Shown: one piece after another, positions 7,539 through 60,440 of the stretch
Position numbering within the stretch: the stretch's first letter is position 1
Layout of the letters: every line of letters begins with the position of its first letter
Source of the DNA: Octopus vulgaris
Taxonomy: Eukaryota
Assembly: GCA_951406725.2 (NCBI GenBank)
Contig: OX597834.1
Span: 29,698,001 to 29,762,000 of the forward strand
Direction: 5' to 3'
DNA: 64,000 nt
The notes under the pieces: generated by a model
What the model was told of the DNA's origin: nothing
Databases searched by the model: none
The model's input: only the letters and a program-made list of their open reading frames with translations
Position numbers and translations under genes: made by a program

Positions 7539-7603
7539 CTTTTAACCGTCCTCCGTCGTCGTTTTGTAGCATACATAGTCTTGATAACCCAATCGTCCAC
7601 CAT
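7539..7603 (-). CDS. AHR: Aryl hydrocarbon receptor (AHR/spineless orthologue), first coding exon (65 nt, phase-2 donor); the bHLH exon lies beyond the left edge of the window
   Basis: The reverse complement reads ATG GTG GAC GAT TGG GTT ATC AAG ACT ATG TAT GCT ACA AAA CGA CGA CGG AGG ACG GTT AAA AG|GTAAGC = MVDDWVIKTMYATKRRRRTVK(R/S). YATKRRRR is the N-terminal basic motif of invertebrate AHRs (Drosophila spineless TVYATKRRRR; vertebrate TYASRKRRK). Consensus donor GT at 7538-7537. Confidence 0.9.
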
Positions 7604-8668: not shown

Positions 8669-8706
8669 CAAGCCACGCCCATTCCAATATAGTGCTAGCC
8701 AATCAG
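8669..8706 (-). promoter_or_regulatory. Putative AHR proximal promoter: Sp/KLF GC box plus two CCAAT (NF-Y) boxes
   Basis: GCCACGCCC at 8672-8680, CCAAT at 8684-8688 and a near-perfect NF-Y site AGCCAATCAG at 8697-8706, clustered in unique sequence ~1.1 kb upstream of the AHR ATG. Confidence 0.6.
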
Positions 8707-24729: not shown

Positions 24730-24937
24730 AAAGTTAATCCAAACATGAAAACACAAAGAGAAAACACAACAATGCGAGGACGTGGAACAAATATAGTATT
24801 ATTGGATGCTCAGGAAGGAAGGGAAAAGGAGGGTTTTACGTTTCGAGCGGAGCTCTTCGTCAGAAACATAGGAAAAGGAAAGATCCAGAGAAGGGAAGAT
24901 GGAGGAAAAAAATTGACAACAGTACACACGCTGTCAC

Positions 24938-24938
<1 letters not shown>
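24730..24938 (-). mobile_element. Penelope-like (PLE) ~200-bp fragment carrying a hammerhead motif, embedded in (TA)n; copy 1
   Basis: Homologous to 26643-26845 and more distantly to 29741-29945; flanked on both sides by TA repeats. Confidence 0.7.
24833..24867 (-). ncRNA. Minimal type I hammerhead ribozyme (intact core)
   Basis: GUUU CUGACGA A GAGC-UCC-GCUC GAAA C G UA^ AAAC: stem I GUUU/AAAC, stem II GAGC/GCUC, palindromic ACGU stem III, GUA cleavage triplet. Confidence 0.8.
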
Positions 24939-24974
<36 letters not shown>

Positions 24975-25689
24975 TTCACGCATATATATTCTTAACGTTT
25001 CAAGTCAACATTACATATGGGGAAGATTCTTTGATTAGCCACCCATATACTAGACAGGACAAAGTTGAATAGAGTTGATTGGTCAGAGCTACTTAACTAC
25101 AACAACAACAACAACATCTCCTTCTTGTACTCAATGAGACAGCTTCTTTCATTTCAGCACTGGAGAATATTTTACAATACTTTGCCTTATTAATTGACAT
25201 AAAAAGAACCATAACACAAATCAGAAACCTAATTCCTTTACCAGACAAAGATTAATCCATCCCTACCTACAACAAGCATAACTGGAGATTCTTGAGTAGC
25301 CAGGGGGTTGGATGAGAAAGAAAGAAAATAATAAAGAGAGAGAGAGAGACAGAGAGACAGAGACAGAGAGAGAGAGACAGAGAGACTGTGACAGACAGAT
25401 AGATAGATAGACAGGGAATCGGACTGGTAGGCAGGCTGCTTGGAGATCCTGCATAATGTCTGTGAAAATTTATAACTTAGCTGAGTTATATTACCATGGT
25501 GCAAAAATGTTTATGGAGCTCCCCAACAGAACAGGGGATGACATATGCAGACAGATTTATAACAACATAAAGTGAGATGGTTGCATTACCATATAAGGAA
25601 ATGGGTGCTGCCATCATGAAATCTTTCTTGGCAGAAATACCATTGCAATTGGAGATTGATATATCGTTATGAATTGAAATGCTTAAACC

Positions 25690-26250
25690 ATCATAAAGTA
25701 AGATAGATGTATCATTATAAGCCAAGATAGTTATGTCGTTATAAACCAAGATAGCTATATCATCATAAACTAAGATAACTATCATCATAAAATTGTAGGA
25801 TAATTGTATTTTCATAAAACAAAATTGCTATGTCATTGAAAAATACAAATTTAAATCATCATAAGCTTAGACAGTTATATTATCATAAACTATGTTAGCT
25901 ATAGTGTCATAAGTCAATATAGTTATATAATCTTAAACTAAAATAGCTAGAGCATCATAAGCTAAGATAGTTATGTCATCATAAACTAAAATAGCATCAT
26001 CATCATAAAATTAAATAAATGTATTTTCACAATGTTGTAATAGTATATCATTAAAAAAAATGCTAAATCACAATAAACTAAGACAGCTATTGCATCATAA
26101 ACTAGTATCATAAAATGCCATAATTGTTTTACCTCAAAACAATATTGTTATATAAGAAATCAGTTATATCATCATCAACTAAGATGCCTAAATCATCATA
26201 AACCAAGGTAACTATATTATCACAAAGTAACTGTACTATCATAAAACAAT
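25690..26250. repeat. Degenerate ~24-bp minisatellite (consensus ~ATCATAAACTAAGATAGCTATATC); resumes at ~26965-27090
   Basis: Consecutive units TCATAAAGTAAGATAGATGTATCA / TTATAAGCCAAGATAGTTATGTCG / TTATAAACCAAGATAGCTATATCA, and so on. Confidence 0.8.
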
Positions 26251-26286
26251 ATTACTAAATCATATTTATGTATGTATGTATGTATG

Positions 26287-26375
<89 letters not shown>

Positions 26376-26642
26376 TTATATATATATAATTCTGAAACTG
26401 TATGGTCGACAGACATTGCTTTGTGCTGGGTGGGGGTGCTAACTTCTCCATGTTCAAAAATACAAGGCCACGGATTGTGTGTCTTATAGCCAGCTGGAGA
26501 CGATGTCTCCTGGGGCTAAACAACAGTAGCATTCACCCCAAAGGGGACTGCCACATTAGGATGGCAAATAATCATTGCTATATATATATGTGTGTGTGTG
26601 TGTGTGTAAGGTGTATATATATATAAATATATATATATATAT

Positions 26643-26845
26643 AAAGTTAATCCAAACAAGAAAACAAAAAGACAACAACGCGAGGATGTGGAACAAATAA
26701 AGTATTATTGGGCGCTCAGGAAAGAAGGGAAGAAGGAGAGTATGATGTTTCGAGCGGAGCTCTTCGTCGGAAACACAGGAGAAAGAAAGATCCCGAGGTG
26801 GGAGGACAGAGGGAAAAAAATGCAAGTGGTCTCCACGAGGTCACA
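26643..26845 (-). mobile_element. PLE fragment copy 2 with a decayed hammerhead (26740-26774)
   Basis: GUUU CCGACGA A GAGCUCCGCUC GAAA CAUC AUAC: U4->C core change, CpG-type loss in stem III and one stem I mismatch. Confidence 0.7.
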
Positions 26846-27702
26846 TATATATATATATATATTTGTATATATATGTATATATATATTTTTTATTTAACAT
26901 ATATATATTATTTGGAGTGTGCAGTATTATATACAGTACACTTTCCAGAGATAAAAGAAAAAGACATCTGCATCATCAGAAGCTAGTCTAGTTATATTAT
27001 CGTCATAAAATAATGGAAAACTATATTCTTATATCGTAGAGATTATAGATATAGATTTATAATCAAAAACAGTTATATCATAAGTAAAGTAGCCAGTTAG
27101 AAAATCTCTAATTAGTATAAGCACCAATAGCCTGAAAGTAAATGGTCTGGTAGAGCTATTATTGCTGGAAGGCAGTGAGGGTTCACTCCCCTGCTTGCGA
27201 TATACATCGAGTGCAGATATCAGCAATAACCAGCTAGGGTTAAAAACAGTTGTAAAGTCTGTTGCTACAGGACAGCCAAGCTCTACTTTTTTCTTTAATT
27301 CACAGTTGAGTGGTTTGTGGTATTAAGGGCATCCAGCTGTAAAACAATTGCTCCAGTGAAGCAATCTATTCAAAATAAATCTATCTTTAAAATACATTGA
27401 TGCTGCTATTGTTTAACTCCAGGTCAGCACGGATGGATCAAACCTATGATTAAGGCTGTTCCAAACACGACACTCATTTGCTTTTGTCCAGGGCCACTTA
27501 TTCAATTTGTTGTTACATTTTGTTAGGTGTGGTTGATCTGGGGGAGATTTGGCTGCTATTTCTTAAAGATTGAGGGACCCCCACCACAGAGAGGTACATG
27601 ATATAGTGGAATGAGGTGGTTATAATATTTAAAATGAATATGTTTATAACCTAATAAAGATTTGTACCATAGGCTGCAAGCATTAAAAAGTTCTTAGACA
27701 AT

Positions 27703-28121
27703 AGGCGCTGGAGTGGCTGTGTGGTAAGTAGCTTGTTTACCAACCACATGGTTCCGGGTTCAGTCCCACTGCATGGCATCTTGGGCAAGTATCTTCTGCG
27801 ATAGCCCCAGGCCGACCAATGCCTTGTGAGTGGATTTGGTAGACGGAAACTGAAAGAAGCCCGTCGTATATATGTATATATATATATGTGTGTGTGTGCA
27901 TGTGTTTGTGTGTGTGTTTGTCCCCCTAGCATTGCTTGACAACCGATGCTGGTGTGTTTATGTTCCCATCACATAGTGGTTCAGCAAAAGAGACTGATAG
28001 AATAAGTACTGGGCTTAAAAAAAGAATAAGTCCCGGGGTCGATTTGCTCGATTAAAGGCGGTGCTCCAGCATGGCCGCAGTCAAATGACTGAAACAAGTA
28101 AAAGAGTAAAGAGAGAGAGTA
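27703..28121 (+). mobile_element. SINE family A, full length
   Basis: Colinear with 13446-13857. Confidence 0.92.
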
Positions 28122-28204
28122 ATAGTTCACACTTAAATTGAGTATGATATCCTCAACCGAAACAGTTAACTGGTACATTAATTTATAAATTCCAGAAGAA
28201 TTTT

Positions 28205-28445
28205 CATTCATTCATCACTTAGTGTCCGCTTTCCCATGCTGGCATGGATCAGAGGGAATTTGTTGAGGCAGATATTCCATGGACAAATGCCCTTCCTGTT
28301 ACCAACCCTTGCCTGTTTCCAAGAATAGGAATACTTTTCCAAGATCAAACATATTTTTCAGGGAAGACAAGAAGCAAATGCCATTGTTTGTATCCTGGTG
28401 ATGCTCATTTACAATCATCGCATGATGTCAAGACAAGGGGGCACA
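28205..28445 (-). mobile_element. RTE-tailed SINE body (same body as 23200-23470)
   Basis: GTCCGCTTTCCCATGCTGGCATGG...TGCCCTTCCTGTTACCAACCCTTGCCTGTTTCCAAG...GATGTCAAGACAAGG. Confidence 0.6.
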
Positions 28446-28569
28446 CAATGAGACACAGAAAGAGATTCTCTATGAGACACATGAAGAGACACACAAAGAG
28501 AGGCACAGTGAGACACATGAAGAGGCACGCAAAGAGAGGCACAATGAGACACACGTACAAGCATTCGTA

Positions 28570-28963
28570 TACTCTTTTACTCTTTTACTTGTTTCAGTCA
28601 TTTGACTGCAGCCATGCTGGAGCACCGCCTTTAGTCAAGCAAATCGACCCCGGGATTTATTCTTTGTAAGCCCAGTACTTATTCTATCGGTCTCTTTTGC
28701 CAAACCGCTAAGTGACGGGGATGTAAACACACCAGCATCGGTTGTCAAGCAATGCTAGGGGGACAAACACAGACAAACAAACACACACGCACACATATAT
28801 ATATATACATATATACGACAGGCTTCTTTCAATTTCCGTCTACCAAATCCACTCACAAGGCATTCATCAGCCCGGGGCTATAGCAGAAGACACTTGCCCA
28901 AGATGCCATGCAGTGGGACTGAACCCGGAACCATGTGGCTGGTTAGCAAGCTACTTACCACAC
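28570..28963 (-). mobile_element. SINE family A, near full length; followed by an older head fragment at 28985-29117
   Basis: The reverse complement is colinear with 13446-13857. Confidence 0.9.
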
Positions 28964-29740
28964 ACATTTCTGAGTAGCAAACCCACTTTCAAGGCTTTGG
29001 GTCAGCCCAGGGTCATTGTAGAAGACACTTGGCCAGAGCACCAAGTATTGAGCCTGAACACAAGACCACATGGCTGGGACCACAAGCTTCTTATTCACAC
29101 AGCCACACCTATACCTGAGAGTGAAAGGCAACAGTCAACACCAGCAAGATTTGAACTCAAAACAGAAAAGAATATAATTAAATACTTTAAGGTATTTTTT
29201 GCTTGAAACTTCACCGATTCCATTGTCTGCTGTCCTTGTTCATGGAATATTAATATAACAAAATATACCAGTTAACCTTTCTTAATACGATACATGATTA
29301 TGCCATCATGAAATGAAGTAGTCAGTTAATGCTAAGCTAAATTGACATCATTATGTCATTATAAAATATGATTATTAACCATGTTAGCAAGATACAGAAG
29401 ATATCTCTACTATCTTCAACAGATGTGATTAGATCATCATGAAGTTGTTATACTGTAATTGCTATTGTCGTATGTTTGTGAACATATCAATTACACTTAT
29501 AGTATTTGTACTGTCTGAAACTGACATGGTTATATACCAACATAAAATAGGTGCTAAGTACTGTCACATCACTAAATATTGAGAAATGCTTCTTTGGAAT
29601 CCTCATATACTGCATTCCTGGCATCAAAGTTGGTTGATTTCCATTAACCAGGTGTTCTTTTCAAAGAACAAAAAAAAAAATAGTTGTTTTAATTGGTAGA
29701 ATATAAAAGCATTACAAGTTATATATAGATATAGATATAA

Positions 29741-29945
29741 TGGGAAGCTTTATGAAAATAAACAAAAGACGAAGGCAGGTGGAATACAAACAAACAATTG
29801 TATTAGTATGGCGCTCAGGAATATAAATAAAACAAGTCTTTTACGTTTCGAGCCTATGCTCTTCAACAGAAAGATACACAGAAAAGAAACACGGAGAGAA
29901 ACAAGGAGAGAAAAAAAATGCATGCAGAAGCTAGCGAATCAACAT
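29741..29945 (-). mobile_element. PLE fragment (sister subfamily) carrying a hammerhead motif; copy 3
   Basis: Shares TATT..TGGCGCTCAGGA...TTTTACGTTTCGAGC...GCTCTTC..CAGAAA with copies 1 and 2. Confidence 0.65.
29837..29874 (-). ncRNA. Minimal type I hammerhead ribozyme, A6U core variant
   Basis: UCUUU CUGUUGA A GAGC-AUAG-GCUC GAAA C G UA^ AAAGA: 5-bp stem I, 4-bp stem II, palindromic ACGU. Confidence 0.7.
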
Positions 29946-59632: not shown

Positions 59633-60440
59633 CTTTTGTTTCTGTCATTGAACTGTGGCCATGCTGGGGCACCACCTTGACAGGTTCTAGTTGAACAAAT
59701 CAAACAAATCAACCTCAGTACCTAGTTTTGCGATCCACCTACAAAACTACAAGTCGCGGCCAGGCCCCCTCGCCCAAGTACTACCAGATACTTTTGTTTA
59801 GGCCCTCTAACAGTGCAGTAGTAAGCAGCAGTGCAGCAGCCCGCTCTCACTGCTGCCGACCACGCAACACCCTGCCGGTGCCAGCCCGACATACATGGTG
59901 CTCAGCCGATGGTGCTGCACGCTTTGCAGCTCCATGACATTTAACTCTTCCTTCCTTCCTACCTCACCGACCGTGGCGTCGGCCGGGGCCCTAGCGCCTC
60001 CGACTGTAACGCAGGTGTTGGCTTCAGCAGTCATGCTTTGTTCCGCTGCCAACGCCTATTCCTTCTCTCTCCTTGCGCGCAGTTTCTTCACGAAACTGCC
60101 GAACCACAAGTCGCGGCCGGGCCCCCTCGCCCGAGTACTACCAAGAGTCTGGTACTTATTCTGTCAATCAATTCTGACAAACTGGTAAGTTATGAGGACA
60201 TCAACAAACCAACACTGATTGTTAAGAAATGGGTGGGGTACACACACACACACACACACATATATGTACAACAAGCTTGCATATGGTTTTTGTTTCTCAA
60301 ATTCATCCATCTCAAGGTATTGTTTGCCTTGGGGTCACAGTAGAGAACATTTTCACAAGTTGCTGTGCTATAGGACTGAACCTGAAACCAAACAGGTGCA
60401 AAGTGAGTTTCTTAACCACACACAACCATACCTGTGCCTA
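59633..60440 (-). mobile_element. Old SINE family A copy split by a GC-rich insertion
   Basis: Tail at 59633-59729; body and head at 60146-60440. Confidence 0.7.
59730..60145. other. Unclassified GC/CpG-rich insertion with 42-bp terminal direct repeats
   Basis: AAC(T/C)ACAAGTCGCGGCC(A/G)GGCCCCCTCGCCC(A/G)AGTACTACCA at 59745-59786 and 60102-60143. Confidence 0.7.

Follow-up and report, generated by a model that had tools for sequence, protein, structure and literature searches.

Solo pseudo-long terminal repeats with hammerhead motifs, probably derived from Neptune-type Penelope-like elements, in the genome of Octopus vulgaris

Three short elements and their hammerhead motifs

The DNA analysed here is a 64,000-nucleotide stretch of the Octopus vulgaris genome (assembly GCA_951406725.2, contig OX597834.1, positions 29,698,001 to 29,762,000 of the forward strand), referred to as the window. 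It holds three related elements of about 205 bp, E1 (24731-24940), E2 (26643-26845) and E3 (29740-29945), all on the minus strand and each with a minimal hammerhead motif; the window has no further members of the group, and its open reading frames (ORFs) are dominated by microsatellites. Identity is 83% between E1 and E2 and 70% between E1 and E3. The elements are read here, with a probability of roughly 85%, as independent solo copies of the pseudo-long terminal repeats (pLTRs) of Neptune-type Penelope-like elements (PLEs), likely made by internal priming of uncut RNA at (TA)n and probably inert at this locus. An original prediction, made from the letters of the window, had described three related minus-strand elements of about 200 bp within 5.2 kb, and their coordinates and relatedness are borne out. 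It had also placed all three in TA-rich repeats; true (TA)n arrays do flank E1 and E2 (Table 1), whereas the flanks of E3 are only short, imperfect TA-rich sequence.

Table 1. Features in the window (positions in the 64,000-nucleotide stretch)
Feature	Position	Strand	Remarks
E1, solo pLTR, lineage A Neptune-type PLE (probable)	24731..24940	-	4,379 initial candidates, best 40 at 94-100%
E1 minimal hammerhead	24833..24867	-	canonical core CUGACGA (24863-24857); stem I GUUU/AAAC; predicted cut 24837/24836
(TA)n array, 5′ side of E1	24940..24972	.	target-site repeat
(TA)n array, 3′ side of E2	26614..26643	.	
E2, solo pLTR, lineage A, subfamily with GUC/AUAC (probable)	26643..26845	-	83% to E1; clusters with L218
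E2 degenerate hammerhead	26740..26774	-	core CCGACGA (U4C at 26769); stem III ACAU (change at 26746); U.U mismatch in stem I
(TA)n array, 5′ side of E2	26845..26908	.	
E3, solo pLTR, lineage B Neptune-type PLE, young subfamily (probable)	29740..29945	-	best 40 matches 98-100%
E3 minimal hammerhead	29837..29874	-	variant core CUGUUGA (U6 at 29866); stem I UCUUU/AAAGA; predicted cut 29842/29841
Probable first coding exon of AHR	7539..7576	-	38 nt, GT donor; 17 kb downstream of E1; context

All three motifs share an extra nucleotide (A) after A9, the G10.1-C11.1 pair, GAAA and an NUH cleavage site, together with the stem II GAGC/GCUC that had been predicted to be kept. The predicted motif coordinates and cuts proved correct, as did the assignment to the minimal type I class and the swap from G-C to C-G in stem I between subfamilies. 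The further claim that each element carries CUGANGA...GAAA-CG-UH fails for two of them: E1 agrees with the published consensus of minimal hammerheads and is the only exact match, while E2 (with its CCGACGA core and ACAU) and E3 (with CUGUUGA) depart from the pattern. E2 was considered as an intact ribozyme and rejected on account of U4C, its stem III and the U.U mismatch in stem I. In E3 the stem II loop AUAG is a rare variant of the GUAG that is usual in the family. The palindromic positions 15.2/16.2 give ACGU in E1 and E3 and ACAU in E2; 17 of 24 aligned copies have C-G here, and the remainder are consistent with CpG decay. An Rfam scan of the window at gathering scores returned no matches, and single-strand folding of E1 and E2 gave alternative, non-hammerhead folds, which is uninformative for a motif of the dimer type.

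The motifs are of a known kind. Metazoan PLE hammerheads, above all those of Acropora digitifera, are likewise described as type I with an extra nucleotide after A9, G10.1-C11.1, a 4-bp stem II ending in GCUC, a loopless C-G palindrome, a short stem I and a U-rich 5′ flank, and their copies are mostly single and dispersed (PMC4209133). They differ at the core: the published alignment rows examined, none of them from a cephalopod, all have U4 and A6, whereas most octopus copies have U6 or C4 (PMC4209133).

Parent elements and the origin of solo copies

Intact parents have the build pLTR, 5′ leader, single ORF (reverse transcriptase (RT), CxxxxCxxC linker, GIY-YIG endonuclease), CA-rich 3′ untranslated region (UTR), pLTR and (TA)n. 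The intact lineage B element (L287) has 638-nt direct repeats that are 98.4% identical, a 194-nt inverted repeat at its 5′ side, U6 in both pLTRs, and an ORF of 1,079 aa from the first Met with YIDD at aa 618 and a GIY-YIG-like motif at aa 875. Two intact elements of lineage A′ (L288 and L290; 949 aa, 98-99% identical to each other) carry U4 in one and C4 in the other; their ORF is 88% identical to a remnant in L102 and their pLTR 72% identical to E1/E2. In L288 (minus strand) about 2.7 kb of mostly CA-rich 3′ UTR separates the end of the ORF from the pLTR, and this region is 98% identical in L290. Further partial tandems with broken ORFs were found in L112 and L113. The direct repeats in the parents measure 638 and 768 nt, and the hammerhead lies in both repeats of L287, L288, L112 and L113.

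The window elements can be tied to such parents. E1 is 88-90% identical to the pLTRs behind RT/GIY-YIG ORF remnants in L102, L103 and L105, where the remnants precede their pLTRs at an equal 2-kb spacing, and E2 is 82-87% identical to ORF-linked pLTRs. E3 is 93% identical to the pLTR of the intact lineage B parent and 98% identical to a pLTR that follows an ORF remnant in L289. Overall, the Penelope-like origin and the targeting of (TA)n that had been proposed are supported by ORF-bearing parents with the same or related ends and by copies that end in (TA)n; a search for a full-length PLE (RT plus GIY-YIG) with the same pLTR, suggested at the time, recovered both intact and partial parents. 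What does not follow is the proposed non-autonomous family, as E1-E3 appear to be terminal repeats of autonomous Neptune-type elements and a separate non-autonomous family is not demonstrated.

The features that point to Neptune are a single ORF with RT followed by a C-terminal GIY-YIG domain, a CX2-5CxxC linker (CSRPRCRTC and CSRSRCNTC in the parent ORFs), pLTRs in partial tandem and an insertion bias for (TA)n; the endonuclease is thus not N-terminal as in the Naiad type. Pfam recovers RVT_1 in the parent ORF (E 5e-8) and GIY-YIG weakly and under the cut-off (E 0.003-0.009), and the parent protein has 847 homologues, the best at 57%. Compared with the Neptune clade as described (PMC8557442), solo pLTRs with a preferred 5′ end far outnumber ORF-bearing copies here, the 3′ UTR is long and CA-rich, and the ribozyme cores are variant. 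ORF remnants of other, more distant Penelope-like families lie beside these elements in L105 (8774-10000), L111 (8341-9531) and L030, and L013 (690-770) holds hammerhead-like pieces on the opposite strand and in unusual order within an unrelated repeat.

The tandem junction suggests a simple route both to solo pLTRs and to (TA)n targeting. In three lineage B tandems the upstream pLTR runs ...CCCG-UUAUAUAU-leader and the downstream pLTR ...CCCG-UUAUAUAU-(UA)n, such that the junction between pLTR and leader passes through UUAUA(UAU) and the same letters enter (TA)n at the downstream pLTR. The junction is identical in all three, and both lineage A′ elements have the same build, there with AAUUAUA. 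Short copies terminate at the UA-tract junction and continue into (TA)n. Their 5′ ends were placed in a density sample of 1.204 Mb (80 random 10-kb stretches, ten arbitrary stretches, the window and its neighbours, with five natural references), which holds 38 copies. Half of them (19) begin at -86 to -73 from C3 and one at -100, the limit of its own reference; three others begin at +49, +72 (the edge of a stretch) and +104. No 5′ end among the 38 lies within 20 nt of the cut site (+28), and cleavage as the source of the copies' 5′ ends was rejected for this reason.

A mechanism that would account for these ends starts with an endonuclease nick in (TA)n, after which the freed DNA end would pair with a UA tract of the element's RNA. 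Copying would then run on to the 5′ end of the RNA, which would lie upstream of the hammerhead core by about 80 nt; transcription would probably start there, inside the upstream pLTR. Priming at the first UA tract would yield a solo copy of about 205 bp, while priming at the last would yield long 5′-truncated copies. The template RNA would be uncut, the hammerhead cut would not be needed to make a copy, the hammerhead itself may be a slow ribozyme that depends on a dimer or a protein, and inserted copies would decay afterwards. Solo pLTRs are mentioned for rotifer PLEs (PMC3846280), and single minimal hammerheads are reported from many animals (PMC4209133). A published parallel is Poseidon, a PLE of Anolis carolinensis with an AT-rich target, for which reverse transcription is reported to start internally, just downstream of the pLTR hammerhead, on an unprocessed RNA template; the hammerhead cuts only with protein and is dispensable for insertion in vitro (PMC11167929). 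The two systems are not alike throughout: the ORF of Poseidon starts inside the hammerhead and its priming site and target lack homology (PMC11167929), whereas the octopus elements have a 300-650-nt leader between pLTR and ORF and end at a UA tract that matches the (TA)n target.

Alternatively, or in addition, the short copies could be non-autonomous elements, SINE-like (short interspersed element-like) or retrozyme-like, with solo pLTRs or short tandems being transcribed and the Neptune protein moving them in trans; this seems rather unlikely, and would be compatible with the solo-pLTR origin for some subfamilies. The 30 copies nearest E3 show 99-100% identity, with at most about 45 nt of upstream extension in any of them, although they were chosen by a short query, and the pLTR behind the ORF remnant in L289 is nearly identical to E3. 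A head-to-tail trimer of a B3 pLTR exists in L271 (G000:C23:44302050-44302688; period 221-224 bp), but its units are parted by (TA)n and may reflect repeated insertion or local duplication. Metazoan non-LTR retrozymes are likewise non-coding, hammerhead-bearing and related to pLTRs, from which they are argued to derive (bioRxiv 10.64898/2026.07.22.740005). They are, however, defined there as tandem arrays, whereas the copies in the window are single, of different subfamilies and kilobases apart; across the 80 random stretches, which hold 20 copies, 18 of the 19 occupied stretches have just one. The L271 trimer is, in its own right, a site where homodimeric U6 hammerheads could form.

Core variants and selection on the hammerhead

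The variant cores of E2 and E3 are family-level forms. A general hammerhead pattern that left core positions 3-7 free has 34,706 exact matches in the genome and its reversed control none, so the motif is not due to chance. In the context of E3, exact copies with U6 number 5,249 against 44 with A6, and U6 as a private mutation of E3 was rejected since it is family-wide; in the context of E1, the exact U4 form has 2,539 copies and the C4 form (CCGACGA) 6,375. Among the first 100 matches listed (start of contig C1, tallied by hand), 59 have CUGU-N (N being U in 23, A in 19, C in 11 and G in 6), 21 CCGA-N, 13 the canonical CUGA-N and 7 other cores. With only 13 canonical cores in that set, surveys based on standard descriptors would miss most copies. 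Position 6 shows no alternative letter at a 5% threshold in contigs from four public runs with four organism labels; H17 varies in them.

The motif is under purifying selection in the parent lineages, despite U6 in lineage B and C4 in much of lineage A. In a comparison of 203 distinct copies, the majority letters of four B subfamilies (25/59, 25/29, 16/16 and 6/6 copies; singletons omitted) differ in none of the 30 constrained motif columns but in 41 of the 135 gap-free columns of the flanks (P = 1e-4); N7 and H17 are the only motif columns that vary. Between the A′ and B parents (dN 0.24, dS about 1.5, for nonsynonymous and synonymous divergence) only four of 30 constrained motif positions differ, and two of these are the covarying pair. 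Sixteen old B2 copies show much the same decay in the flanks as in the part of the motif not covered by the search anchor (0.056 and 0.057, respectively). Pairing is kept in 93% of cells across 24 hand-picked copies, and the outer pair of stem I is C-G in 9, G-C in 8, U-A in 3, G-U in 1 and unpaired in 3; as the sequences are related, this covariation lends modest support.

The direction of change can be traced in part. In a DNA tree of 72 copies, U6 spans the entire B clade and A6 copies appear here and there, and in lineage A the U4 copies nest within C4; many branches of the tree are weak, and no order of events is therefore claimed for position 4. A relaxed hammerhead scan of 80 metagenome loci with related ORFs found 12 minimal hammerheads and none in shuffled controls. 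All 12 have A6, which suggests that A6 is ancestral and U6 derived. Position 4 is the canonical U in nine and C in three (L346, L348 and L365, Acropora-type minimal hammerheads of distant relatives), so that C4 recurs outside the octopus genome; since C4 creates a CpG, decay can restore the canonical letter. The published Acropora alignment row matches the motif beside related ORFs in this animal DNA of metagenomes, and six of the 12 motifs match the A. digitifera PLE motif except at positions 4 and 7. The same scan also recovered minimal hammerheads with the known U3-A8 swap (L188:- and L374).

Ribozymes with U6 or C4 are expected, by analogy, to be slowed and not necessarily dead. A saturation study found low activity for individual changes in the CUGA turn (PMC9901934). 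Natural variants of this sort keep some activity: U4C, in a viroid, is slow in vitro and sufficient for the viroid, and A6C, in phage Bcep176, cleaves slowly in Mg2+ and better in Mn2+ (PMC3088659; PMC7151607). These are single genomes whose hammerheads have tertiary contacts, and A6U is not among the variants described there; in the octopus, a long-lived lineage of high copy number has U6 fixed throughout, in a minimal fold. No A6U core was found in the published literature and alignments searched, in which work on PLE-hammerhead dimers is incompletely covered and may list U6 or C4. A recent annotation of octopus repeats lists 31 recently active Penelope-like families and, in the portion available, leaves hammerheads unmentioned (PMC13282606).

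It is about an even call whether the CUGU-N-GA core of lineage B has been kept by selection through at least four subfamilies as a deliberately slowed, protein-assisted ribozyme or as a fold kept to bind the element's own enzyme. On this proposal, the CUGA turn would have been weakened time and again in successful Neptune lineages (by A6U in B and by U4C in A and distant relatives), because uncut RNA serves as the insertion template. The competing idea, that A6U killed the lineage B motif and that its fold or sequence is kept for another purpose such as protein binding or a promoter element, is doubtful and a shade less likely than mobilisation in trans. It gains from the low activity of CUGA-turn changes, from the strong slowing of A6C in Mg2+, from the lack of copies that begin at the cut site and from the wide spread of lineage B with U6. 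Against it, change falls precisely on the two positions left free by hammerhead chemistry, as N7 takes all four letters and H17 is A, U or C but not G as a subfamily trait; C3-G8, GAAA and the ACGU palindrome are held in lineage B, and the natural U4C and A6C variants keep some activity.

Several points weigh against the derivation of E1-E3 from Neptune-type pLTRs by internal priming, and against the selection read from their motif. The remaining 15 of the 38 copies begin between -64 and -7, partly since alignments of old copies stop early. The proposed transcription start, the priming step and possible cleavage all derive from genomic sequence, and the Anolis element primes where the sequence lacks homology to the cut DNA (PMC11167929), unlike the pairing proposed here. 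The exact subfamilies of E1 and E2 are without an intact parent among the elements found, the intact A′ pLTR being the 72% relative described above and the closer ORF-linked copies broken. The CX2-5CxxC linker before the endonuclease is described as common to Neptune and Nematis (PMC8557442), and the label 'Neptune-type' allows for either clade. A fuzzy anchor that covered part of the motif was used to collect the copies compared, which favours conserved motifs; the 13 constrained columns outside the anchor are likewise all fixed (by hand, P about 0.009). The motif of B3 copies is more conserved than the flanks within individual copies (0.010 vs 0.044), which may be anchor bias. Finally, covariation is limited to one base pair, and stem II never covaries within the genome.

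The point of lasting interest is a U6 core, under selection and shared across its lineage, with a parent that is intact and was recently active. The role of hammerheads in PLEs is described as an open question (PMC8557442; PMC11167929), and intact, closely related parents that differ at core positions 4 and 6 allow a direct comparison of cleavage and insertion. If the U6 core is indeed slowed, the commonest small ribozyme-like motif of this genome escapes standard hammerhead descriptors and would serve as a natural experiment on the function of PLE hammerheads.

The AHR gene and other features of the window

E1-E3 share their strand with AHR, whose start codon is 17-22 kb downstream of them. 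The probable first coding exon (Table 1) appears to join in phase to a basic helix-loop-helix (bHLH) exon at G000:C21:29532017-29532142, 173 kb away, for which AHRR (E 4e-24) and AHR (E 2e-22) are the best matches in the PDB; a motif search for this second exon covered the 150 kb next to the window and drew a blank, the exon sitting 166 kb beyond. This AHR-like gene would occupy the minus strand, its first intron spanning about 173 kb, and two CCAAT boxes near 8670-8700 may mark its promoter.

The grouping of the three elements is unremarkable. The density sample gives about 88,000 copies per 2.8-Gb genome (62,000-121,000), at which about 1,070 triplets within 5.2 kb are expected per genome, some 270 of them co-oriented by chance; the 304 kb around the window hold 15 copies, nine on the plus and six on the minus strand, without strand bias. 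In the established model of the double hammerhead, stem I forms between two copies (PMC4209133), so that the G-C/C-G swap yields G.G and C.C mismatches in E1/E3 heterodimers, while E2, with ACAU, breaks the ACGU palindrome of stem III with either partner. The original proposal was that co-oriented copies on a single transcript could in principle pair as heterodimeric hammerheads and cleave RNA that runs toward AHR. For this trio it is rejected as very improbable: although all three are on the AHR strand, and E1 and E3 have the same palindrome and could form three stem I pairs, every mixed pair is mismatched in stem I or stem III, two of the three cores are variant, the cluster is at chance level, the elements are 2-5 kb apart and far from the start codon, the trio was assembled recently given the young family of E3, and dimers of minimal hammerheads are reported to cut poorly even when adjacent (PMC4209133). 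The motifs are of a known kind in ordinary solo pLTRs, and neither their clustering nor the regulatory reading carries weight.

Other repeats occur in the window. Between E2 and E3 lie two inverted copies (27720-28115 and 28570-28960; 91% identical) of a common SINE-like repeat of about 400 bp. A degenerate 24-bp tandem repeat occupies 25689-26226, with similar sequence again near 27000-27090, and a GC-rich stretch at 59695-60185 has an internal duplication and no Pfam match.

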